Source of the DNA: Okamejei kenojei
Taxonomy: Eukaryota
Direction of reading: 5' to 3'
Assembly: GCA_035221665.1 (NCBI GenBank)
Contig: CM069154.1
Location: forward strand, 5,642,001-5,706,000
DNA: 64,000 nucleotides
Shown here in pieces: positions 15,341 to 54,396 of this stretch. Each line of letters starts with the position of its first letter. The first letter of the stretch is position 1. The translations under genes and the position numbers were made by a program. The notes below the pieces were generated by a model. It worked only from the letters and a program-made list of their open reading frames with translations, did not search any database and was not told the DNA's origin.

Positions 15341-16194
15341 TGTCTTTTTTCTCCTGGGTAACATTTCAACACATGAGAAGCTGAGGAAGGCTGGACAAAT
15401 TAGTGACGCGCATTTTGAGGTGGGTAAACAGTTCACAAATTCACACGTTCCAGAAGTAGAATTTGGCCATTCGGCCCATCGAGTCTACTCCGCCATTCAA
15501 ACATGGCTGATCTCTGCCTCCTAATCCCATAGAAGTTCAGACACAGTGTGCCTGCATTTGGGGGACGGGGTTGAGGAGGTGGGCAAGGGAATGTCTGAGG
15601 TGGTGGACAGAGCACCAGTCAAGCAGACAAACATCACCAGGATGAAGCCGAGGTTCGAGGAGATGCTCCAATCAGGCTACAGGAGAGTGTTGCAGCGCAC
15701 TCCTGATAGGTGCATTGTCCGTGGTGAGGAGGCTGGGGGAGGTGGCAAGTGAGTCACCAAGTTAGTCTTGAACCACTGCAAAGTCAATTCCTGAGTAAAC
15801 GGAAATTGACTGTTTGACTTCTGTTGTGAATGAGGAAGAGGACAACTCAAACGCAGTGCAGGGTCCAAACCGATCCAACACAGCCAAGACATGGCGGTGG
15901 GACAGGGAGAATTCACCCACCAGAAACGGCCCAGATCCAGGGGAACAGTCGCTCTGTTGGTTCTTGTCGCTGTTGGTCTCACACCAGGTAAATCGTTGTT
16001 TTACAAAATGCTCTGTTCTTTAGAATTATTTACCAGCGCCTTGAATTATTTGCAATCAAGGACCTCTCTGTACTGTGTGGGGAGCTGATGATAAATTGCT
16101 CAACACTCGTTAGTTCCTGTAGAGACTTCCATCAGCGGTTGTTGTCGTGTTGTGTGCAGCCAAATTGCACACAGCTGGCTCCTTGTGGAGAAGG

Positions 16195-16720
16195 CATATA
16201 AGTAAGGAAGTAAGTAAGTTTATTGGCCAATTATTCACATACAAGGAATTTGCCTTGGTGCTCCACCCACAAGTAACAACAACACATACAGTGACAGTTA
16301 CGAATGACTCAGAAAACACTAAACATTAATAATAATAGAATATTAATGATAAAACATGATTGATCAAGCATGCGAACCAACAAAATACCAGATCAAAGGG
16401 AGGCTACAGATTTTTGGCTGTTGAGTAGAGCAACTACTCGTGGATAAAACTGTTTTTATGTCTGGCTGTGGCAGCTTTGACATTCCGGAGTCGCCTTCCA
16501 GAGGGAAGTGATTCAAAGAGTTTGTGGCCAGGGTGAGAGGGGTCAGAGATGATCTTGCCCGCTCGCTTCCTGGCCCTTGCAGTGTACAGTTCATCAATGG
16601 AGGGAAGGTTGCAGCCAATAACCTTCTCTGCTGATCAGACGATTTGCTGCAGCCTCCAGGTGTCGTGCTTGGTGGCTGAGCCAAACCAGACAAGGATGGA
16701 GAAGGTGAGAATAGACTCAC
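16195..16720 (-). mobile_element. Rex1/Babar-type LINE 3' end, present only in copy 2
   Basis: Minus-strand peptide SILTFSILVWFGSATK..KVIGCNLPSIDELYTARARKRAGKIISDPSHPGHKLFESLPSGRR..NSFYP, followed by an aataaa/(ttac)n tail. Paralogous units lack it. Confidence 0.8.
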
Positions 16721-17491
16721 TATCTACAGCTTGCCTTGCCTTGTGGACCTCACTAAAACTTACCAAATAGTGAAAGGCCTGGATAGAGTGGATGGGGTGA
16801 GGATGTTTCCACTAGTGGGATAGTCTAGAACCAGAGGTCACAGCCTCAGAATTAAAGGATGTTCCTTTAGGAAGGAGATGAGGAGGAATTTCTTTAGTCA
16901 AGGGAGGTGAAAATGTGGAATTCATTGCCGCAGAATGCTGTGGAGGCCGTCAATAGATATTTCTAAGGCAGAGATAGATAGATTCTTGATCAGAACTGGC
17001 GTCAGGAGTCCTGGGAAGAAGGCAGGAGGATTGAGTTGAGAGGGAAAGGTAGATCAGCCATGATTGAATGGAGTGGATTAGACTTGATAGGCCAAATGGC
17101 CTAATTCTGCTCCTAGTACTAATGAACTTATGATCTGTTCTTCAGAATTATTTACTAGCACCTTGAATTATTTTGAGCCACAGAGCAGACTACTGGGCTA
17201 CGAGCTGCTAAAGATAAAGTGCTTGCAGACTTGTTCTTTCCTGCACAAATGACTGTTGTGTAGCTGTGTGCAGCCAAATTGCACACAGCTAACTCCCTGT
17301 AGAAAATGACCTGACAGCTGGCCTTGTTGATCTTGGGTGTAGGGGTAACTCTTGCCCCCCAGAACAGAGAGTTTGCTCCTCTATTCTGGTGCAAACTATC
17401 TCCACGTGAACTTTCTCAGTGCCTTGACAGCAGATCAGCTAAATGCTTTAACCCTTGCATATCTCTTGACTTCCTCCCCTCCCTGACTCTT

Positions 17492-22715: not shown

Positions 22716-23634
22716 GTGGACTTTGCTACATCAGGAGAGGGCAGCATTCCTGCTGCCTGACCCGCTGAGTTACTCCAGCATTTTGTGACCATCTGCAACC
22801 TTTCTCAGTTGTGAAAGTTTGAGTAGAGGGGAAACGGATCCTGTTGTCTGTAAAATCAGTCCCAGTACTTTGAGAAAGTGTGGCTGATCACATTCCAGTC
22901 CATTGATAAATACTCCTTGGCCCTGACTAAAGTCCCTCTGTCGTTAGTACACCCAGTGGCCCTACCATTGTGAATCTCCACCCTTATTTGATGCCAAAAA
23001 CAAATAACTTCACACTTATCACAGTTCAATACCTGCTGGCATTGCTCTGCCCAACATACCAGTTGCTTCTTATCCCTCTGTGGTCTGTGGTCTATGATTA
23101 TTGTACTATCCAAAATGATACAATTTTACTTCGGATTCACATGAGTGACTACGTGAAGAACCCCGTACAGCCATTCGTGCGTCATTGCATCAGACGCTTT
23201 CGTGCAGACGACTGTGGAGCAGCGCAGCTCCTCCAACGGTAAGTCAAAAAAGTTTCAGGTAAGCGCTATTCCTTACCTGTTGTAGGTCTCCTGCAGGAAC
23301 CTCCGAGGTTTTTGCGGGATGGTCGCGAGGCCGACGAGTGAACCAGCCTAGGGCTTTGGGGGAAAACCCTGGCCCGACCGCGGAAGCGGAGAGCTGGGTA
23401 TGTCGGGTTCGCGATTGGGATCACTGATAACGTGGTCAGTGACTCCACACGTTGGGTTCTCGGGGAGGGGATACCCGAGAATAGTGCGGTTCCAGACCGC
23501 AGTAGTCCCTAAGGTATGGGGCTTAACTGACCTGAACGGTTCCCAGACCGCAGTGGTCCCCAAGAATTGGGGTTTAATTCACATAAATGATTAGCCCGGG
23601 TGCCGGGAGGGTACCGCGGGGGAATCAATATAAA

Positions 23635-23635
<1 letters not shown>

Positions 23636-23704
<69 letters not shown>

Positions 23705-23715
23705 TATATTTATAT
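23636..23715. repeat. (TA)n microsatellite inside DIRS #2
   Basis: Near-pure TA run of about 80 bp. Confidence 0.95.
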
Positions 23716-23888
23716 TGATTCCCGGGGAGGGGAAATTCACTTATGGGGTTCCCAACCCACAATAATCCGCAGGATATGGGGACAGCTGAAAAAATAGTCA
23801 GTGTAATTAGGAAAGATTTGGTAGGTTTCGCCTGTGGGAATGAATTTAGAGACACTCCTTCAGCGGGAGTTGGATCAGCAGTAAAGTT

Positions 23889-24365
23889 TATGGCAGTGTC
23901 AGCCTATTGCAGAGGCTGTGCCAGCAGCACCTTTGGGAAGGGCTGCTTCATGGGGATGCCAAGTTATGGCAGTGCCAGCCTATGGGAAAGGTTGTGCCAG
24001 CAGTACCTTTGTTCAGGACTGCTCATGTGGATGCCAAGCTATGGCAGGCTAGCCTATTGGAGAGGCTGTGCCAGCAGCACTTTTGCTCAGGGCTGCTCAT
24101 GGGGATGCCAAACTATGGCAGGCACGCCTATTGCAGAGGCGGTGCCAGCAGTACCTTTGCTCAGAACTGCTCCAGGGGAATGCCAAGTTATGGCAGGTTA
24201 GCCTATTGGAGAGGTTATGCCAGCAGCACCTTTGCTCAGGGCTGCTTCATGAGAACGCCATGTCTATGGCAAACACTGGCCTATGGGAAAGGCCGCGCCA
24301 GCAGCACCTTTGTTCAGGGCTGCTTCATGGGCGCCAGCGGTACCTTCTTCAGGGCTGCTTTATGG
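23889..24365 (+). repeat. Tandem array of 74-76 bp hairpin-rich units (6 full plus 1 partial) inside DIRS #2
   Basis: The anchor TATGGCA recurs at 23889, 23965, 24040, 24114, 24189 and 24265. Confidence 0.92.
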
Positions 24366-26534
24366 GAATAGCTGCTTAGTAGGGTATTCCCATTTACAGT
24401 GATCATGGGGGATGAGGGGTCATGGTTAGGATAAGGCAATATAACAGAATGATGACAAAAAAACCATTCAAAGAAAACTATTCACAGTTTAAAATCCACT
24501 GTTAAGTCTCAAACTATATTTGAGAAATTGGGCTCCTCTATCCAGTTAGATTACGTCTATCAAATAGACTTGTAGGATGTTGGGATTCACTTTTAGGTAT
24601 TCAATTGGCCAAGACATTGGCCTGGGCAACAGATGGCAGTCAATAGACTCTGGTAACAGTTTTGTTGTTATAAATCAGCTTTTCTAGTCATTAGATTAAT
24701 TGTTAATAGTATAGATGTGATTCAGCTGTGCACGTAAGACAATTTATTTTGTTAAATGGTTAACTATTAAGGGCCATATAGGTCATTGTTAACACACCTT
24801 GTTTCACCTACTGAAAAAATAAAATCACAATGATGGACAAACAGTATTCATTACTGCTCCAGTTGTTAAGTAAATCTTTAATTATATTGCAAAATGGTGC
24901 TAATGGCCCTAAATGGGAAATTGTGTCAGCAGCGCTTTTTAGCAGGCCTGCTTAAGGTCTCCCTCATGTAGGAGGAGAGCATGCTGCATCAATATTAGTC
25001 GGACGCTGGGGCCATGGCAAAGTCGGCGTATTGCTGAAGCTGCGCCAGCAGCACCTTGTAACAGGGCTGCTTAATGGCTCCCTCATGTAAGAGGAGAGCA
25101 TGTGGGATCGGTATAGTCTAACACGGAGTCTGAGGGTATAGCCATAGAGCATGCCCAAGGAATACAGGGCATGTGCCAGAGGTCTATGCCTGGCAAGAAA
25201 GTTACCATCCCAAACACATATGCAGTGAATACCGCTCTCAGGGGGACATTACAGTTGGCCGCCGAATCTTCTATTCAGGTAAGACCTTTCCATAGGCGAA
25301 ACCTGGAGGACAAAGCACAAGCTATTGGAACGAGCAAGGTTTCATAGTTTTGGTGACAATGCATCCCACATCTTTATTGGCAGTAAGCGGTTCACTGAAG
25401 TTGGTGGCAGCATGAAAGCTGGCCAGAGGTTCCACGCACTGTAACTGTGCTACTCTACAATTAAGAGACCACTTACAGCTTGGTAAGGTGTACACTTAGT
25501 TATACATTACAAATGATTGAGACATTATCAGCTATCTTGAGGGGTCTAACCATGTAAAATGGACTGTACTAGCTTTTCAAGCAGGTTAGAATTGGACAGG
25601 TTCAGTAGAAGAACAAGATTGTCTTGCAAGACTGGTTTGGAAATCGAGCCACAGTTGCTATTTACGGTAGATACCAAGTTGCAAATATCATCTCGAGTTT
25701 GGAGGTGGAGCAGACTTGCATGACTTGCAAAAATTTCTGTTATGGATATCAACTATCTATAGACCCTACGGGCATTGTATGGGTTAAAAAATGATTGGAC
25801 AAATGTGCATATTGTAATGCTCAGGTTCAGGTTGATACATTATGATTATGGCATATGTTAGTCACGAGGGTGCAATCAGTTAAAGATTCCTGGAATGGTT
25901 ACATAATCTTGTTCTCACAGGAGAATCATCAAATATAGGTTAATGGCAACACCGAATTGGTGTTGAATCACACTGTATTATGAAATTCTGGTTAAATGGA
26001 CTTCGAAGTAAAATAGTAAGATTAAATGAGAACTTACCAGTTTGAAGTTTGATCTTATATTCACACTTTTTATACATTTTATTAAAGGGTATTTTTATAC
26101 ATTTTGGTTACACCATGTAGAAATTACAGCTGTGTTTATACATAGTCCCCTCATTTCAGGGCACCATAATGTTTGGGACACATGGCTTCACAGGTGTTTG
26201 TAATTGCTCAGGTGTGCTTAATTGCCTCTTTAATGCAGGCATAAGAAAGCTCTCAGCACCTAATCTTTCCTCCAGTCTTTTCATCATCTTTGGAAATTTT
26301 TATTGCTGTTTATCAACATGAGGACCAAAGTTGTGCCAATGAATATCAAAGAAGCCATTATGAGACTGAGAAACAAGAATAAAACTGTTATCAACATCAG
26401 CCAAACATTGAGCTTACCAAAATCAACTTTTTGGAACATCATTAAGAAGAACGAGAGCACTGGTGAGCTTACTAATCGCAAAGGGACTGGCAGGCCAAGG
26501 AAGACCTCCACAGCTGATGACAGAATAATTGTCT

Positions 26535-29500
26535 TTTTTTTTTTTTTTTTTTTTTTAATTTTATAATACAACTAAGGAGATAGGTCCGTAGGTACAGAAA
26601 TCAAAACTATTCGTCGAGTCCTGGGTTCAAGTTTCTGTCGAGACTCAGCGCTGGCCCATTCTACCCCTTCAAATAATCTATGAACGGGGACCATATTCGA
26701 ATAAATAATTCAGGTTTGTCGATTAAGACAAATCTAATTTTTTTCCAGATTTAAGGTCTCTGACATCTCCACATTTTAATTGTAGGGGATGCAGGGTTTT
26801 TCCAAAATTTTAATATTAGTTTTTTTCCCAGTTATTATACTATAATCCAGGAAATTTCTTTGGTTTATTGTCAGTTTTAGGTATTGTTCAGATATGCCCA
26901 ATATTATTAATTTAGGATCGGGATCCAGTTGAATATTAACCACTATGGAAATAATTTTAAAAATATCCACCCAAAATGTTTTAATTTTTATGCAATTTAC
27001 AAAGGTATGGGTTAAATTAGCCTCAGAGTATTGACATTTATCGCAGATAGGAGAGATATTAGGAAAAATTCTGTTTAATTTTGTTTTAGAATAATACAAT
27101 CTGTGTAATATTTTAAATTGTATTAAAGAATGTCTGGCGTTTAACAAACATTGATGTATATGTTGTAGGCTTTCATCCCAAATATCTTTCCTTATGGGTT
27201 GAACTAATTCATTTTCCCATGCTTGTCCATGTGATTCCGTCGACTGATTCTCACTATCTAACAGAATATTGTAAAAATATGATATTAATTTGACTGTGTT
27301 GGGATGTTTATTCAAACATTCATCTAGAATCTCTGGCTCTCTAATTCTGTATTCTTGTGTATGTGATTTAACATAATCTTTCAATTGTAAATATCTAAAA
27401 AAATTATTTGAATGTAATCCATAATTCTGTTGTACCTCCAGAAACGAGAGGAACATACCATTTCTATAAAGATGTCCCATCTTTTTAATTCCATAATTTT
27501 TCCATTGTGTAAAGCCTTTATCCAATACCGAAGGCTTAAATGAAGGGTTATTTGCAATAGGGAGCGAAAGTGATAAATTATCCAATTTTAATGTTCTTTT
27601 TATTTGTTTCCAAATTCGAATACCGCTATGTATTATTGGATTTTCACTATAAATCTTTTTGTTCAATTTTGTAGGGGATAGGAGAATCGCACCAATTTCA
27701 AATGGCAGACAGTCCTCCTTTTCCATCTTGATCCGAAATTATAATATTATGATATTTCGAATTATAAGTAAATGGGATGAGTTTAGAATCTACTAAAAAG
27801 TAGTCTATCCTTGAATAAGTTTTATGTACTGAAGAATAAAATGAGTATTCCCTTCCAGATGGGGTTTCAATTCTCCAAACATCCTTGATATTGGTGGTAT
27901 TAATATATGAGCTTAATAATTCACTTGATTTGGATTTTGCTTTTCTTTGTCTTGTTGATCTATCGAGATAGGAATCTAATGTACAATTTAAATCTCCACC
28001 AATTATCAAATTATGTTGTGTGAGCTCCGGAATGGTATTAAGTATATTGTTAAAAAAACATTGGATTATCAAAATTTGGTCCATAAACATTAAGAAAAAT
28101 CACTTTTTTTTTAATATAATTCACCCACCAGTATAATATATCTACCATTGATGTCCGCTATAGTTGATATATGTTTTAAAAGAGATACCTTTACGAATTA
28201 AAATTGCGACACCTCTGGCCTTATGGGAAAATGAAGAGTGATATGTTTTCGGCGATCCATTTTGCTTTCAATCTATACTGTGCGTCTTTTTTTAAGGTGC
28301 GTCTCTTGAAGGAACGTATGTCTGCTTTGAGTGATTTTAAGTGTGCTAATACCTTACCTCTCTTGATTGGTTCATTAACTCCCTTGACATTCCAACGACA
28401 AAACATAATTCCTTGACCCCCGTTTTTTCTATTTACATCTTGCATCTTGCTGTTAGGGTGTCTATAAAAGAGCAGATAGGTCAGCACCGTAGACCCGACC
28501 TTCCACCCGAACCCTGGACTGGACGAGTTGTAATTCTAATTCATATAATTCCTCCTTACGGACACATCTCCACAAATAATATTTGTAAATAAATTCAAGA
28601 TTAATGTAATTAGGAAAAAAATACAAAAAGTAAAAAAAATAGAAAATTAATAAAATGTGAAAAGAAAGAAGTAACTACATCTAGATTTAATGTAGTAAGT
28701 GCTAGCCACACTAACGTGGCTGTCCATCAAAAGACTTCTGTAGATTAAACAAAAATATATAATTATTCCTAGCTCCATGCTTACAAGAAAAATTTGAATA
28801 TGAGTAATATACGGGATTATATTAAAACTATTTTGGACCTGAGTGTTGGTAATCATATAGTGAGAGACTATTACTCTCTTTGTTAGTTATTAGTCAAGTC
28901 TAATGTAGATAAAGGGAGAACATCACAAATTCCAATTAATAAAATATCTAAATTATAACTTCTTATTTGTTAGTTTTTTATATTTAACATATCATGTATT
29001 TAACTAGTTATTCCAATAATAATAACAAGTATTTTTGATGATTAGTAATTGTTAGTAAGAAATTAGTACTAAATATTTAAAAAATAATATGTCCCTAATT
29101 GGGGGGACAACCCGATTGTCGTTATCAGCTTTCAATAGTCCTTGAATATAACGAATTAAAGTTCCATTTGTTCTCAGCAAGATGACGGTATTATATGTAA
29201 ATTATTCAATCCTCTCTCGAACCCACAATCTTCTGGGCATACGCCAGTGCTTTCTTGTGATCAGTGAAAAAGTGTTCCTTCTTCAGATAAGTGACTCGCA
29301 GTCTTGCGGGGTACAACAATCCATATTTCAAATTGTCTATCTTCTTTAAAATCCCTCTTGTCTCATTGAATAACGCTCTCCTTCTGACCACTTCTGCAGG
29401 GTAGTCTTGAAATATGCTTATTTTGTCTCCATCAAACATAAGATTTCTTGTGCCAGCAATTTTTTTTCATGATATCCTCCAACACGTGATCGTATTGGAC

Positions 29501-30443
29501 CTTCACTATCAGCTGCCTGGGGGGGGGGGGGGGCGTTCGGGTCCGAGCGACGTCCAAGAACTCTGTGTGCCCGCCCTAATAAGGGCTTTTGGTCTAAATT
29601 CAAGACTGTTTCTAATAAGTCTGCAGCAAAGTCCCGGAGATCTTCATTTCCTTCTTTACCCTCTTGAACGCCCACAATCCTCAAGTTCTGTCTTCTCTGA
29701 CGGCCCTCCAAGTCAATACATTTTTCAGTTACTTTAAGCAGTAAATCTGATAAACGCTTGTTCTCGGCAAGGAGTGTGTCTGTTGTTACTTCCAGCTGAG
29801 TTATGGCGTCAGCCTGTTTCTCCATTTGTTGCTGCATTGTAGTGAAGGTCACTTCCAGATTATCTTTAGTGTTGGTTTCATTCGTCTTGATTTTCTCATA
29901 TACTTCCTTAATTTGTAAGTCGAAATTTGCTGACATTTCCTCCTTCATATTAGTCAGTTTCGTACGCACCAGATTAGTCATTTTATTTTCAAACTCTAAG
30001 AAATCTTCTTTAAACTCTGTTTTAAGACTTTTCAAAAGTTCTTTAATATTCAATTCGTTTTTAAAACTTATCAATTCTTCTTTCATACTTGCAATTTCCA
30101 TTGTATTGCTGTTGCGAAGTTCATGCATTTCTCTTGTCTTTATATATATCTTCTGGGTCACTGAAACGTCCTCCTGGGAGGATGTTAAAACTGAGCCCGA
30201 GGCTTCAGACCGGCCTACTTCCTCCTTCGGTTGTTTTCCTCTTGTTGCTTTTCTAGTCGGTTCCTTTGTGGGGGAGTGTTTTACCGACATTGGGAATCCA
30301 GTCGTGGTCTGATGACGTCACATAGACTGCCGGAGCGATTTCTGCAGGTCAGTTCTATATTTAGATCCCGTTTTTTTTCGGTTTTTCCGCGTGGAGCTAG
30401 CTGGCACTCACCCTACTCCACCATTAGCGCCACCGGAAGTCCC
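26535..30443 (-). mobile_element. L1-clade LINE #2 with complete 5' end and ORF1 but RT domain internally deleted
   Basis: 5' GGGACTTCCGGTGGCG. ORF1 DLEGRQRRQNLRIVGV..ISIFQDYPAE. EN WNVKG..GGDLN..SRIDYFL..ISD is joined directly to post-RT MEKEDCL at ~27727. Poly(T) at 26534-26556. 14-bp TSD cagaataattgtct at 26521-26534 and 30444-30457. Confidence 0.93.
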
Positions 30444-31229
30444 CAGAATAATTGTCTCTCTAATAAAGAAAAAAACCCAAATACCTGTCCGACAGGTCAG
30501 AAACACTCTTCAGGAGTCAGGTGTGGATTTGTCAATGAACACTGTCTGCAGAAGACTTCATGAACAGAAATACAGAGGCTACATTGCAAGATGCAAACCA
30601 CTGGTTAGCCACAAAAATAGGATGGCCAGGTTACAGTTTGCCACAAAGTACTTAACAGAGCAACCACAGTCCTGGAAAAGGATCTTGTGGACAGATGAGA
30701 ACAAAGATGAACTTATATCAGATTAATGGCAATTGCAAAATATGGAGAAGAGGAGGAACTGCCCAAGATCCAAAGCATACCACCTCATCTGTGAAACACG
30801 GTGGTGGGGGTGTTATGGCCTGGGCATGTATGGCTGCTGAAGGTACTGGCTCGCTTATCTTCATTGACGATACAACTGCTAATGGTGGTAGCATAATGAA
30901 TTCTGATGTGTATTGACACATCCTATCTGCTCAAGTTCAAACAAATGCCTCAAAACCCATAGGCCGGCAGTTCATTCTACAGCAAGACAATGATTCCAAA
31001 CATATTGCAAAAGCAACAAAGACATTTTTCAAAGCTAAAAAATGGTCAATTCTTGAGTGGCCAAGTCATTCTGGATCCAATTGAGCATGCCGTTTATATG
31101 GTGAAGAGAAAAGGGGACTAGCCCCCAAAACAAGCATAAGCTAAAGATGGCTGCAATACAGGCGTGGCAGAGCATCACCAGAGAAGACACCCAGCAACTG
31201 GTGATGTCCATTAATCACAGACGTCAAAG

Positions 31230-31975
31230 AAAAGTAAAAAGTAAAGTATTCTTTATTGTCATTCAGACCTTTTGGTCTGAACAAAATTTCGTTGCCTTTC
31301 AGTCATACATTTAATAAAATAACAAAACACACAATAAACACAAATTTAACATCCAGCACAGAGTTTACCAGGCACCTCCTCACTGTGATGGAAGGCAAAA
31401 GCCTCAAGTCCTTGTCTCTTCCCTCCTTGTTCTCCCTCTGAGCTGAGGCAATCCAGGCTTCCGATGTTGTGACCCCATCGGGTCACCTGCCGGGACACCT
31501 CCTGAGCCCCGACTCGGGCCGTCGCCGCCGGGACGCCTCCTCAGCCCCTAGTCGGGCCATCGCTGCCGGGACACCTCCTCAGCCCCGAGTCGGGCCGCCT
31601 TCGCCGCCGGGACACTTCAGCACTGAGTCGGGATGTCGCCGCCGAACACCGCCTCAGCCCAAAAGTCAGGACGGCCAGCCTTGCGCTGGTAAGTCCTGGC
31701 TGGCTCTGCCTCCGGAGGGTCGAGGCCGGTCGCAGTTGGATGCCGCCAGCTCCGTTATTAGGCCTCAGTGCAGATGGAGACAGGGGATACGACAAGAAAA
31801 GTCGCATCCCTCCCGAAGGAAGAGACAAAAACAAGTTTCTCCCACCCCCACACACATACACAACCTAATAACTCAAATTAACTAGCTAAAACAGGACAAG
31901 ACAACAACAAAAAAAAGAAAGAACAGACGGACTGCAGGCGAGCTGCAGCTGCTAAGTCAGCGCCGCCATTTCCTG
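31230..31975 (-). mobile_element. Non-autonomous LINE-derived or SINE-like element inserted in Tc1 #2, with internal GC-rich ~37-bp repeats (partial second copy 60652-61087)
   Basis: Minus strand begins caggaaatggcggcg and ends aataaa..(tacttt)n. It interrupts Tc1 at cagacgtcaaag|cagtcattgcatg (compare 42578-42600). gccgggacac..cagccccgagtcgggcc repeats at 31485-31660. Confidence 0.65.
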
Positions 31976-32274
31976 AAAGCAGTCATTGCATGTAAAGGAT
32001 ATGCAACAAGATACTAAACATGACTACTTTCATTTACATGACATTGCTGTGTCCCATTATGGTGCCCTGAAATAGGGGGACTATGTAGAAACACTGCTGT
32101 AATTTCACCATGGTGAAACCAAAATGTGTAAAAATGGCCTTTATTAATATTTGACAATGTGCACTTTAACCACATGTGGTTATTTTTCTATTACAAATGT
32201 CAAATTGTGGAGTACAGAGGCAAATAAATAAATGATGGGTCTCTGTCCCAAACATTATGGAGGGGGCTGTAGGC

Positions 32275-32980: not shown

Positions 32981-34364
32981 ACTCTACTTTTTTACCAATT
33001 TGATGTTTGAAAGAATATAAGATACCGCCAGAAATGTGGAAACTCTTGTGTACTATATCATATAATCTGCTATTAATACACTCTTGTCCTTAGCTTCAGC
33101 TGTGCTTATATAAAGTAAGATTTTTACTGAATTCTATGCATGAGACAATAAAGTATCATTGAACCATTGAGCAATGGGGATATAAAAACAGTTAAATGAT
33201 TACAAATATTGAACTGTGGACACGCGTTAGAAGAATAAGATAAAAATTGAGGGTAAACGTTATATTAATATTGTTATTCTGATGGAATGACGCCCAATAA
33301 TCATCGTTTAGCTTTTCAGGGCCAGAGAGGGTGTTCACCAGTTGGAGATGTACAAATCTCATCACCTTGACCCTACAGTATCACCACACCCCATCTATGT
33401 CCAATCTTGAGGAGGAATTTCTTTAGCCAGAAGGTGATGAATCTGTGGAATTCATTGCCACAGACAGCTGTGGAGGCCATGTCAATGGATAATTTTAAAG
33501 TGGAGATTGACAGGTTTTCTCAGGGAGTCTAAGGTTGTGGGGAGAAGGCAGGAGAATAGGATGGAGTGGGAAAGATAGATCATCCATGATTGAATGGCAG
33601 AGTAGACTTGATGGAGCAAATGACCAAATTCTGCACCTATGTTTGCAGACACGTCTGCACATCCTGACATTCACCCAAAAGACAGCAGTACATAGACCAG
33701 AACTCAAAGCTGGCTCTCCAGAATGTGAACTTTTAACTTTACTATCAATTGAATTGCTGTGTAAAACCCTGCACATTGAATAATGATTAATATAATCGAA
33801 CATAAATAAAGATGGCTGCATTTTTGTCATAAGGCCATAAGTGACGAGAGTAGAATTAGGCCATTCAGCCCATCAAGTCTACTCCCCCATTCATTCATAG
33901 CTGACCTATGTCTTCCTCCCAACCCCATTCTCCTGCATTCTCCCCATAACCTCTGACACATATACTAATTAAGAATTTATCTGGTGATGTGATTGGACGT
34001 ACCTGATCACGTTTGGCATTGTCTTATCTCTTCTGGGTAATGTTTCAACACATGAGAAGCTGAGGAAGGCTGGACAAATTAGCGACACACATTTTGAGGT
34101 GGGTAAACTGATTACGTTTACACGTTCCATGAGTAGAATATGGTCATTCTGCCCAACAAGTTTATTCCGCCATTCATACATGGCTGATCTCTGCTTCCTA
34201 ATCCCATACTATTTCAGACACAGTGTGCCGCATTTGGGGGAGGGGTTTGAGGGAGTGGGCAAGGGAATGTTTGCGTTGGTGGACTGTGCGCTAGTCAAGC
34301 GGGCAAATGTCACCAAGGCACTCCTGATAGGTGCATTGTCCGTGGTGAGGAGGCTGGGGGAGTT

Positions 34365-34465
34365 GGCAAGTGAGTCACCAAGTTAGTCTCGTACCACTGC
34401 AAAGTCGTTTCCTGAGCAAACGGAAATTGACTATTTGACTTAGGTTGTGAATGAGGAAGAGGACA
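34365..34465 (+). promoter_or_regulatory. Candidate myeloid enhancer (AP-1 TGAGTCA 34371, ETS CGGAAA 34421, PU.1-like GAGGAAG 34453); present in all five units
   Basis: Motif matches only, in non-TE sequence upstream of the V exon. Sharing among recent duplicates is not evidence of constraint. Confidence 0.3.
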
Positions 34466-35741
34466 ACTCAAACGCAGTGCAGGAACCAAACCGATCCAAC
34501 GCAGCCAAGACATGGCGGTGGGACAGGGAGAATTCACCCACCAGAAACAGCCCAGATCCAGGGGAACAGTCGCTCTGCTGGTTCTTGTCGTTGTTCTCAC
34601 ACCAGGTAAATCGTTGTTTTACAAAATGCTCTGTTCATTAGAATTAGCTACCAGCAGATGATAAATTGCTCAACACTCGTTAGTTCCTGTAGAGACTTCC
34701 ATCAGCGGTTGTTGTCGTGTTGTGTGCAGCCAAATTGCACACAGCTCGCTCCCTGTGGAGAAGGGAGATAACTACCTACAGCTTGCCTTGCCTTGTGGAC
34801 CTCACTGTAACTTACCAAACATAACAAATAGTGAAAGCCTGTATAGTGTGGATGGGGTGAGGATGTTTCCACTAGTGGGAGAGTCTAGGACCAGAGGTCG
34901 CAGCCTGAGAATTCAAGGGCATTCCTTTAGGAAGGAGATGCAGAGGAATTTCTTTAAAAGGTGGTGAAACTGTGGAATTCACTGCCACAGAATGCTGTGG
35001 AGGCCGTCGATAAATATTTCTAAGGCAGAGATGGATAAATTTACGGGTGTTAGGAGTCTTGGGGAATAGGCAGGAGGATTTAGTTGAGAGGGAAAGGTAG
35101 ATCAGCCATGATTGAATGGAGGAGAGTAGACTTGATGTGCCAAATGGCCTAATTCTGCTCCTAGTACTAATTAACTTATGATCTGTTCAGAATTATTTAC
35201 TAACACCTTGAATTATTTTGAGCACAGAGCAGACTACTGGGCTACAAGCTGGTAAAGATAAAGTGCTTGCAGACTTGTTCTTTCCTGCACAAACGACTGT
35301 TGTGATGCTGTGCGCAGCCAAATTGCACACAGCTAACTCCCTGTAGAAAATGACCCGACAGCTGGCCTTGTTGATTATGGGTGTAGGGGTAACTCTTGCC
35401 CCCCAGACCAGAGAGTTTGTTCCACTATTCTGGTGCAAACTATCTCCAGGTGAACTTTCTCAGTAACTTGACAGCAGACCAGCTAAATGCTTTACCCCTT
35501 GCATATCTCTTTACTTCCACCCTCGCTGACTGTTGGTCTGAAGACGGGTCTCAACTCGAAACCTCACTCTTTTCTTCGCTCCAGAGATGCCACCTGACCC
35601 GCTGCGTTACTCCAATATTTAGTGTCCATCAAAGACACACGGCACTCCCTCGACGCACTGCAATGGGAAATGTTGAACCTAAACCTTAGCACATTCAAAG
35701 AAAAAACCTGTGAAAGCCAGCCATTGGGAACAAGCGGGCAT

Positions 35742-52000: not shown

Positions 52001-54396
52001 ATACGCATTCTTTAAATCAATGGTTGCCATATAATACCCTTTGGACACTAGATGTTTGCCCGTGGTAAAGGTCTCCATTTTGAAATGCCTATAACAAACA
52101 AATGTGTTCAAATTCGATAAATCCAGAATAATTCTACATTCCCCAGTCTTTTTAGATCTGGGAAATATACTTGACAGAAATTGTTGACTTTGATAGACAG
52201 ATGGCTCAATTACCCCTTTCTTATGTAACGACTGAATCTCTGCTTGAATAAGCACATTTTCCTCATCTGAAAAATAAGTTTACGACTAGGAAAAATGTTG
52301 ATTAGGTAGACTGTCCTTATAGTAAAATCCAATTTTTCACCCTTGAATACACTAAGTTTGAACAAATCTGATGTCAACTGCTGCCATTGTTTGAGAAACA
52401 ATTTTAACCTTCCCCAATTTGAACAGGAACATCAGTTAATTCATCGTCTGTCAATGTTATATTCCTTACCAGCATCTTTCCTTGCGGCCTTGTTGTCCTC
52501 GACTTCTTGTAGAGAACCTTTTTTTGCCTTGCTTCCAGCTGGCTTAATGAGGGCCATGGTTATAACAACCTCATGACAGTCTTTGACCCTTTTTGCAAGG
52601 TTACCACCAAACAACAGATTTCGTGGTGGTACACTGGTCGGTTTGCACAACTCGCCAAATTCGGGTTAGCACTGGCCTAATAGCGGCCCTCCCGATATTA
52701 TTAATTTCAAAATGCATTACAAAGGAGTTCCAGTTCATCCTGGTGTGCTTCAACCATATCGTTTGTATCAATAGCTTTCACCACAGCTGTAATACCTGCT
52801 GACAACAGTTTAAGCACTTTTTTAAACTTCATCTCCTGGGCCCTAGCAGGCAAACCCATCTATGATCAAATTTGGTGATTAACCACCGGTACCTTCAGGA
52901 GATCACAATTAACAGGAGCTTTATAGTTTTTTGCTACTTCATCCATAGCTAGCTCCTGTAACTGGTGGGAGAGCATATACTGAATGGCTTCGGCCAATTC
53001 TACATCAATCGCCTTTCCTGCCTCTCTACACTCAGCAAACTTCCCAGCAATGTTCGGAATTACCTCCAACCGAACACCTTTACTGCTCTCCCCCAGCATA
53101 GAATCAGTGTCAGCAAACTGCACTGATAGAACATCCTCCTCACAGGCAGGATAGTTCTGCAGCCCTGAAACAGGTGCTGCTAGCACAAGCTCTCCATCAG
53201 CCTGGCTTGGGCACCACTCCTCCCCACGGAGCTGGTCCCTGTCGAGCATTCTTTTGTAATAGAATCTCGACGTGGGAGAGCCGTGAGCAAACGGACTCTC
53301 CTATGGAGGGTATAACCTCCAGGCCCGACTCATTTACGGGCCACAGAGACTTGCCAGTGGCCTTCCACCCTACTGACAAGCCTCCACTGCCCCCCAGCAG
53401 TGCGTCCGCAACCACTGGCTGTGTAGCCAGCACCGGACCAGGTGTACCAGACGGGCCTCCATCCTCAACACTCTCCTGCCACTTTTCCTTTCTACCCCCG
53501 GAGCGCCTCGCCGACACCTTCTTCACTTTCTGCAACATTCTCTAAGAACCCCAAACCGTCGCAGAAAATGACATGTGGTAAATTTTTTTAAAAACCTTAC
53601 CTCTTTAAACTTGTTTAACGAAGAACTGCAAATGCTGGAGAATCGAGGGTGAAGTCTGAAGAAGGGTCTCGACCCGCAACGTCTCCATCTCCTTCGCTCC
53701 TTAGATGCTGCTGCACCCGCTAAATTCTCCAGCTCTTCGTATAACCCGCGGTTTAAACTTACCGCTCGGAGGAGCGCACCTGCTCCAACCGGCCGACTGC
53801 ACCAGCGTAGAAACATAGAAATTAGGTGCAGGAGTAGGCCATTCAGCCCTTCGAGCCTGCACCGCCATTCAATATGATCATGGCTGATCATCCAACTCAG
53901 TATCCCGTACCTGCCTTCTCTCCATACCCTCTGATCCCCTTAGCCACAAGGGCCACATCCAACTCACTCTTAAATATAGCCAATGAACTGGCCTCAACTA
54001 CCCTCTGTGGCAGAGAGTTCCAGAGACTCACCACTCTCTGTGTGAAAAAGTCTTTCTCATCTCGGTCTTAAAGGATTTCCCCTTATCCTTAAGCTGTGAC
54101 CCCTTGTCCTGGACTTCCCCAACATCGGGAACAATCTTCCTGCATCAAGCCTGTCCAACCCCTTAAGAATTTTGTAGGTTTCTATAAGATCCCCTCTCAA
54201 TCTCCTAAATTCCAGAGAGTATAAACCGAGTCTATCCAGTCTTTCTTCATAAGACAGTCCTGACATCCCAGGAATCAGTCTGGTGAACCTTCTCTGCACT
54301 CCCTCTATGGCAATAATGTCCAATACTGACGTCATGACGCACCAACGCTGTACGGGCTTCTATTCACGTAGTCACTCACGTGACTCCGAAGTAAAA
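49100..54396 (-). mobile_element. DIRS1-type retrotransposon #3, full length but frameshifted (gag ~53540-52500, RT ~52400-51470, RNase H ~51520-50970, adenine methyltransferase-like ~50950-50565, tyrosine recombinase ~50580-49587)
   Basis: RT IDLKNAY, LPNGLTSAPRLFTK, YLDD. RH TDVS..GWG, INYLEL, IDNTTAVAYVN. MT DLFAS and YVFPPF. YR HSTRAASTS..AAGWSS..FQRFY. Inverted termini and an ICR at ~49318-49428 with junction CTTACTATTTTACTTCGG. Confidence 0.95.
53808..54325 (-). mobile_element. CR1/HER1 3' fragment nested in the 5' region of DIRS #3 (PLE fragment alongside at ~53610-53745)
   Basis: IIAIEGVQRRFTRLIPGMSGLSYEERLDRLGLYSLEFRRLRGDLIETYK; tail tttctatgtttcta. Confidence 0.9.

Follow-up and report, generated by a model that had tools for sequence, protein, structure and literature searches.

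Introduction

Why a tandem array of short hairpins should stand inside a retroelement without intact genes, and whether the pairing within it is under selection, is the question raised by a stretch of 64,000 nt from the skate Okamejei kenojei (assembly GCA_035221665.1, contig CM069154.1, positions 5,642,001 to 5,706,000 of the forward strand), here called the window, to which coordinates refer unless a locus is named. An initial annotation, made from the letters alone, had described units of about 75 nt with three hairpins each and compensatory base changes, and had proposed selection on an RNA or single-stranded DNA structure. According to the available part of the Dictyostelium DIRS-1 work, neither the way in which DIRS RNA is selected nor the start of its reverse transcription is known (PMC7192593). 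Comparison of the array with its relatives in the skate genome suggests that it likely marks the signal by which DIRS RNA gets recognised for copying.

The host element

The array lies in a truncated copy of a DIRS1-type element (23123..26056, + strand), which begins with a 5′ terminus, the left inverted repeat (23123..23190, +), whose start is common to coding DIRS families, and closes with an ICR remnant (26001..26056, +) containing the junction of the two termini, as recognised by comparison with the ICRs of other copies. The copy is without about 1.4 kb before the ICR and without the 3′ end, a full-length family member measuring about 4.36 kb (L031, 854–5215). A genome search with the array yielded 1273 first-look candidates, identity being 92–100% in the 40 that were scored, and a single-copy 20-mer adjoining the array has 569 exact matches genome-wide, equivalent to at least 569 family copies. 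Other array-bearing loci begin at the position equal to window 23111–23123 in 21 of 29 cases; the 3′ end is present in 17 of 20 long loci, and in most of these 17 rows the ICR, read as its reverse complement, spells the 3′ end followed by the 5′ end across a shared T-run. The termini are inverted, as the 5′ end matches the inverted 3′ region in L031, L043, L045, L048 and L049. Copies picked by their 3′ end carry the array in 18 of 20 cases.

Intact gag, RT/RH and YR frames are absent, with no open frame above 188 aa in four copies examined, where a YR remnant (best E 1e-4) is the only coding trace; a Pfam search of 11 open frames of the window element gave nothing significant. Its termini are common to the coding families A and B, and the coding relative L072 displays RVT_1 (2e-17) and Phage_integrase (3e-9) matches. 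As inverted termini, an ICR, the lack of intact open reading frames and the termini of coding DIRS elements occur together, the host of the array is a dispersed coding-dead DIRS1-type family. Among 38 copies placed in a tree, subfamilies follow one another, their terminal branches falling from about 4% to 1%. Family A was considered as the direct parent and rejected, since at the DNA level it shares the termini only. DIRS elements are very abundant in this genome, with about 19,000 exact terminus matches, a figure that includes double counts.

Two GTAAG motifs near the 5′ end (23239..23263, +), splice-donor-like by the donor consensus, are kept in the 5′ ends of most families. A second hairpin-rich segment (23434..23590, +) consists of one full and one partial unit of about 93 nt; the unit is tandem in L032, L033, L035, L036 and L045, where self-matches have a period of about 93, and by eye the segment resembles hairpins near the gag start. 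This second hairpin group near the gag start is also tandem in coding-dead lineages (53, about 62 and 93–103 nt), at sites including L127 around 820–1110, L186, L197 and window 23434–23590, and seems to be retained in an AT-drifted lineage described below. An (AT)n microsatellite (23635–23715) stands inside the element just 5′ of the array, and similar expansions occur in the AT-drifted lineage.

Layout and folding of the array

The tandem array (23889..24365, +) is composed of six units of 74–78 nt, each in the order H0-H1-H2, and a seventh unit of 36 nt with H2 only. Tandem Repeats Finder (TRF) reports 23889–24331 with a period of 74, 5.9 copies and 81% matches, followed by a 35-nt tail at 24295–24366, and successive H2 hairpins are spaced by 76, 74, 74, 75, 78 and 36 nt. 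The tandem units of about 75 nt inside a non-autonomous DIRS element are thus confirmed by TRF, by motif positions and by the family architecture. The H1 hairpins (5 bp, 7-nt loop) start at 23901, 23977, 24051, 24125, 24200 and 24278 (span 23901..24294, +), the H2 hairpins (5 bp, a bulged A, 3 bp and a 5–6-nt loop) at 23924, 24000, 24074, 24148, 24223, 24301 and 24337 (span 23924..24358, +) and the H0 hairpins at 23958, 24033, 24107, 24182 and 24257 (span 23958..24270, +). The description of every unit as three hairpins therefore holds in part: five H0, six H1 and seven H2 are found at the described places, but unit 1 is without the left arm of H0.

Folded singly, five of the six units are no better on the + strand than their dinucleotide shuffles (z +0.3 to −0.9), while unit 6 folds better than shuffles on both strands (z −2.7 on + and −3.0 on −). 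The array was also screened for known RNA types. A loosely tRNA-like geometry and processing into small RNAs, both raised at first, found no support, with 0 genes from ARAGORN and no Rfam match overlapping the array at E up to 5; on the window region, Rfam gave only AT-repeat and weak off-array matches, and on five relatives it gave none. No ribozyme core was detected in the array either by Rfam or by a search with a hammerhead core motif.

Pairing changes within the array family

Pairing was counted over 326 H2 and 280 H1 hairpins in 51 copies. The fifth pair of H2 is C-G in 155, T-A in 94, T-G in 63 and C-A in 10 of the 326 hairpins, the third pair is A-T in 291 and G-T in 28, and the end pair shows an inherited A-C break in 15. 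The H2 change from GCAGC/GCTGC to GCAGT/ACTGC is thus real and inherited family-wide, and the H1 forms GGCCT/AGGCC of unit 6 and the AGGTT wobble are likewise inherited variants. The H1 form CGCCT/AGGCG of unit 4, read at first as a compensation, is private to the window copy (1 of 280), the inherited variant at that site being an A.G mismatch (23 of 280), and a C.A break at another H1 pair is inherited in 18 of 280. The claim that differences between units keep the pairing accordingly stands for several inherited paired changes and fails for inherited breaks in H1 and H2 and for private H2 breaks in units 3 and 4. Because units 1 and 6 are shifted in register, which distorts the H0 pair counts, these counts were left unused.

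Among 22 colinear copies, 24 of 74 private stem changes leave the pairing intact; of the inherited stem changes, 8 of 12 do (binomial p 0.016; Fisher 0.027 against private), a tally made by hand after the data had been seen, to which H2 contributes 3 of 4 (p 0.14 if taken separately). The contrast between inherited and private changes is modest evidence for selection. Private changes per site amount to 0.43 in stems versus 0.35 in loops (p 0.40), so that there is no constraint after insertion, as expected. That the wobbles fix the + strand, as had been argued, is not established, as G-U stands against A-C with 12 versus 8 cells in 14 family rows and folding energies are equal on both strands. 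The number of H2 hairpins per copy ranges from 3 to 8, also among young sister copies, so that no particular number is needed. Array length had seemed stable in older copies, an impression that was discarded, as those copies had been chosen by their likeness to the window array.

Origin of the unit in gag

Coding family B, nested in L074, matches the array family over its first 130 nt at 82–85%. The array unit finds a single 52-nt match of 79% identity (E 4e-5) in the open gag frame of family B, which, among family-B matches with E below 0.01, is the sole one besides the 5′ terminus. H1 is homologous to a family-B gag hairpin with one pair flipped from C-G to G-C and H2 to a single-copy gag hairpin of the coding families, while folds of coding gag offered no recognisable counterpart of H0. 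On these alignments, the H1-H2 core of the array unit goes back to a part of gag that is single and in frame in intact relatives. Units that align in frame to a repetitive Gag segment had been named among the findings that would speak against a structural role; the units are indeed gag-derived, but the source segment is single-copy. An origin from a repetitive in-frame gag was consequently rejected, the segment occurring once in families A and B and the H2 spacings being 76, 74, 74, 75, 78 and 36.

In gag, H1 and H2 belong to a cluster of about 135 nt in which family-wise folding predicts four hairpins, H1, H2, H2b and H3. Their spacing is nearly constant in most rows and is kept across gag families that are only 31–47% identical. 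In a MAFFT alignment, 11 of 12 gag rows from these families have their H2 peptides at matching columns, and the PxxGL peptide at H2 is partly conserved. A blind fold scan over six families, comprising 301 aligned windows of nine codons, found the lowest mean energy at H2 (−11.4 kcal/mol, z −1.9) and ranked H3, about 57 nt downstream, first by z (−2.45); other windows have a mean z of −0.26 (sd 0.53), and only windows of H3 have a better z than H2. Of 13 representatives, nine have an H2 that folds better than synonymous-codon shuffles at p<0.05, and four do not. Third-position identity at H2 is only among the top 15 of 253 windows, which counts against a structural signal.

From a nearly gap-free alignment of 14 cluster rows, RNAalifold recovered H2 and H3 unaided, with 12 pairs of which 5 have double changes. 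A structure of 15 pairs has 87% of its cells paired, versus 23–50% for slid controls, and a covariation score of 0.232 versus 0.118. The number of double-change pairs was equalled in 144 of 500 shuffles and is hence not significant; the 14 rows are related, and we estimate 4–5 independent covariation events. Minus-strand folding energies equal the plus-strand ones in representatives of the gag hairpins. The loops vary in sequence and length and, by inspection, are not palindromic, with no self-complementary loop for dimerisation. As in the 5′ regions of Ty1 and in retroviral psi, a conserved secondary structure, here in predicted folds, is thus found in the 5′/gag region. Selection on a base-paired structure is supported more strongly than the initial annotation could see, although mainly by the relatives and not by the array itself.

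Beyond the skate genome, a protein search with a single gag gave no match and neither did a metagenome scan. A gag profile search returned 11 proteins, six of them named from skates (Rhinoraja, Leucoraja), and some of the 11, compared as protein alone, display by eye the spacing of the H2 and H3 peptides. Two more DIRS gag fragments with the hairpin cluster lie in the window on the minus strand (239–321 and 53103–53183), the latter being a 5′-truncated derivative of family B.

The diversity of DIRS elements was sampled as the first 62 of about 81 distinct 5′ ends that an exact search for the terminus lists on contig C1. The sample falls into 17 sequence clusters; the clusters, at least 17 in number and with gags down to 31% identical, possess near-identical termini, which would allow cross-mobilisation between DIRS families. 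The array family contributes one of the 62 ends and is therefore no obvious winner.

Retention of the cluster after coding loss

The cluster outlasts the reading frame in an AT-drifted, frameshifted lineage, of which seven copies were aligned that count as one lineage and not as independent trials. Compared with the GC-rich gag relative L174, 25 of 26 stem positions of H2b and H3 are identical in five copies, 23 of 26 in one and 18 of 26 in one, where a microsatellite replaces half of H3, whereas outside the stems identity is 59–64%. With the closer relative L204, all 26 stem positions agree versus 73% elsewhere. In the same lineage, the loops have grown to 16–19 A-rich bases, and after a 9-nt deletion at the H2 site a new hairpin has formed there, which in some copies pairs through G-T (G-U) on the + strand.

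A profile of the cluster matches 50 of the 62 sampled DIRS 5′ ends and has no minus-strand match among them; 12 of its 14 rows come from that sample and match by construction. The 12 misses comprise seven AT-drifted ends, five of which keep all three stems by folding, and five that are deleted or interrupted. Of the junctions of cluster-removing deletions, both of the two tested, a small sample, are single-copy genome-wide with up to one mismatch allowed. As stems are kept after coding loss while loops change freely and short stems and bulged purines are conserved, the cluster would have to act in cis on the nucleic acid of the element itself.

Multiplication of the cluster

Downstream of the array, the window element holds two whole gag hairpin clusters. 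The first (24917..25010, +), with decayed H1, H2, H2b and H3, is matched by the profile at 24927–25008 (E 6.5e-5) and is part of a 119-nt direct repeat (D20); the second (25036..25130, +), in which H3 is decayed, is matched at 25045–25113 (E 6.9e-7). With seven H2 in the array and the two clusters at 24917–25130, the element has nine H2 copies. A sister lineage possesses 6–11 H2 per copy in 20 copies, including several whole clusters, and exhibits a new double change (G-C 127, A-T 32, G-T 3 and A-C 2 of 166). Arrays of other unit lengths are found in L186 and L127, and these, the arrays of the sister lineage and those of the window family may have one origin.

One derivative of family B, whose copies have frameshifts in common, bears tandem copies of 106 nt that span H1-H2-H2b; of 3772 exact matches, the first 100 cover 76 loci, and 22 of these have the family-B segment in tandem. 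Single-copy and duplicated forms of this derivative have both spread, which argues against selection for number. Judged by these alignments, at least two coding-dead lineages have multiplied the cluster segment independently. The 106-nt duplication occurs on different frameshift backgrounds (L122 and L133 versus L140, L141, L147 and L150), which suggests recombination between copies or recurrent duplication. All unit sizes, 36, 62, 74–78, 106 and 119 nt, contain a complete H2. Likewise against selection for number, other 5′ segments of 53, 64, 69–73 and 93–103 nt are duplicated too.

What the array may do

Our preferred reading, to which we assign a probability of roughly 0.45, is that the array is an amplification of H1-H2, that the cluster is a cis-acting RNA signal, likely bound by the Gag or RT of a helper, and that the units are under selection. 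The array would have arisen when H1-H2, out of the predicted four-hairpin gag cluster, was amplified in tandem, and the cluster on the element RNA would be recognised by helper-made Gag or RT and lead to packaging and reverse transcription. With the reading frame gone, duplications out of frame (36, 62, 74–78, 106 and 119 nt) would be tolerated; they probably arise as template switches of RT at short homologies. The added units would still fold, and selection on transposing master copies would keep their pairing. Because the loops vary freely in sequence and length, the recognised feature might be the short helix with a bulged purine that is found in both H2 and H3, and extra units might provide greater avidity for a limiting helper protein. 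A broader proposal, which we regard as doubtful, is that the cluster is the missing Gag/RT-recognition and possibly priming element of vertebrate DIRS, and that coding-dead families, in an arms race for helpers, have repeatedly evolved multivalent arrays of bulged helices comparable to defective-interfering RNAs.

The cluster may also be a real cis signal of which only the two whole copies at 24917–25130 matter, the array being a neutral by-product; we rank this account close behind that of selected units. Hairpins would stall RT, the template switches so provoked would leave duplications, and these would persist after the loss of coding; the units would look compensated as young copies of a paired template. 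The variation of unit number among sister copies, the weak folding of units, the inherited breaks in H1 and at the end pair of H2, the duplication of other 5′ segments as well and the persistence of whole clusters downstream all agree with such neutrality. It accounts less well for new double changes inside the arrays of two lineages with few mismatched intermediates, for inherited changes that preserve pairs more often than private ones, for the complete H2 in units of 36, 62, 74–78, 106 and 119 nt, and for the fact that duplications have spread and deletions have not. The signal could also serve host RNA handling rather than Gag or RT, with a 3′ splice site masked or presented by the hairpins, or with export or stability of unspliced RNA controlled, the number of copies tuning the balance. 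We consider this unlikely: 8 of 13 family rows have YAG|G in the 3′ arm of H2, the pair of donor-like 5′-end motifs is conserved and retention in coding-dead lineages suits any cis role, but the AG is missing in families C, C2 and E though pairing is kept there, and the donor-to-H2 junction pattern has 2 genomic matches versus 38 for a reversed control. The failure to find spliced retrocopies in the genome by this count (2 versus 38) is a weak negative, as spliced RNA may escape being copied back.

Two further accounts fare worse. That the structure acts on single-stranded minus-strand cDNA, or as a DNA element, and not as RNA is improbable, even though DIRS-1 is reported, in the part of the study at hand, to make linear single-stranded cDNA (PMC7192593) and the skate data, with minus-strand folding energies equal to plus-strand ones and G-U exceeding A-C by just 12 to 8, do not separate the strands; the rebuilt H2 of the AT-drifted lineage relies in some copies on G-T pairs that are valid only on the plus strand, and bulges and double changes are ill-suited to a double-stranded binding site. 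Most improbable of all is a codon accident, in which Pro, Gly and Leu codons of a conserved gag peptide happen to pair and the array is a plain minisatellite, or, alternatively, a set of tRNA-like or small-RNA precursors. The four of 13 representatives that fail to beat synonymous shuffles and the partly conserved PxxGL peptide speak for the codon accident, which is largely refuted by stems that outlast coding loss in the AT-drifted lineage and also persist through amino-acid changes; the precursors are contradicted by the empty ARAGORN and Rfam searches of the array.

Precedents and significance

Under the preferred reading of a cis-acting signal for helper Gag or RT, the cis region of Ty1 is, by analogy, the best precedent. 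The part of the Ty1 study at hand places packaging sequences within the 5′ 380 nt, where deletion of nt 237–380 cuts packaging to 15%, and describes the region as working with proteins supplied in trans (PMC4974528). Both would combine a structured, cis-acting sequence close to the 5′ end of the RNA with proteins acting in trans; going by the same portion of that study, the Ty1 region has a tRNA primer site and a pseudoknot, whereas the DIRS cluster lies 500–750 nt in, has no known primer site and is naturally multiplied in coding-dead lineages (PMC4974528).

Retroviral psi comprises several short stem-loops near the gag start, and hepadnaviral epsilon, near the core start, is a bulged stem-loop bound by the polymerase. 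The DIRS cluster is similar in consisting of several short predicted stem-loops, bulged, in gag, but is without a conserved loop sequence or a dimerisation loop, and its stems are far shorter than that of epsilon. LTR elements are already known to carry cis signals inside gag, and the DIRS cluster would be a variation on that.

For Dictyostelium DIRS-1, the accessible portions of two studies describe inverted termini and an ICR spelling the junction of 3′ end and 5′ end, as in the window family, which differs in having no intact open reading frames and nine H2 copies (PMC7192593, PMC5633606). One of them states, in the portion at hand, that the RT of DIRS-1 acts in trans, which makes non-autonomous families possible, that the ICR is essential and that no primer for reverse transcription is known (PMC7192593). 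The same text reports that a construct without ORF1 had cDNA made in trans and did not complete transposition, which, as far as that text goes, argues that the gag region is unneeded for reverse transcription itself in Dictyostelium (PMC7192593). Retrozymes and Cassandra/TRIM arrays, to judge from partial texts, are likewise non-autonomous with structured RNA or tandem organisation, but the DIRS repeat is an internal gag-derived module without a ribozyme match and its helper would be a YR element (PMC4918200, PMC7215508). A literature search with partial coverage, outside Repbase/Dfam and supplements, found no description of a gag-embedded hairpin cluster or array in DIRS.

A candidate of about 135 nt with mapped stems, bulges and natural variants makes the question of how DIRS RNA is selected accessible to probing and binding experiments. 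Parasitic retroelements that keep, rebuild and multiply a putative cis signal after gene loss offer a natural experiment.

Other features of the window and its relatives

A family-A copy (L072, 4456–7698) carries gag and pol in a single frame of 1081 aa, the end of which has a weak PCIF1-type match (E 0.0015) that is probably the DIRS methyltransferase domain. In L191, an antisense, decayed fragment precedes gag about 700–870 nt from the element 5′ end (raw about 790–960) on the opposite strand, with peptides such as NKQGWQNSIRHNLSLN; this family is common to L191, L202 and L184. We take the fragment, from the peptide named, to be forkhead-domain-like, and thus an apparent host-gene capture.

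In the window, the DIRS copy is cut by an element at 26076–32270 with inverted repeats (26076–26171 and 32055–32150) and a transposase-like frame (26264–26566), which holds an insert of about 3.9 kb on the minus strand (about 26506–30444). The element is presumably Tc1-like and its insert L1-like. A GC-rich 38-nt tandem repeat of 4.6 copies (31489–31660) lies within the Tc1-like element. Elsewhere in the window, repeated blocks at 15341–16896 and 34020–34956, about 18.6 kb apart, share 83–95% identity. Other DIRS families are inserted into DIRS copies in L004, L070, L008, L033 and L074, a self-targeting that the available part of a DIRS-1 study also reports (PMC5633606), and the insertions of L004 and L070 occupy the same site in the array family, equal to window position 24880 or thereabouts.
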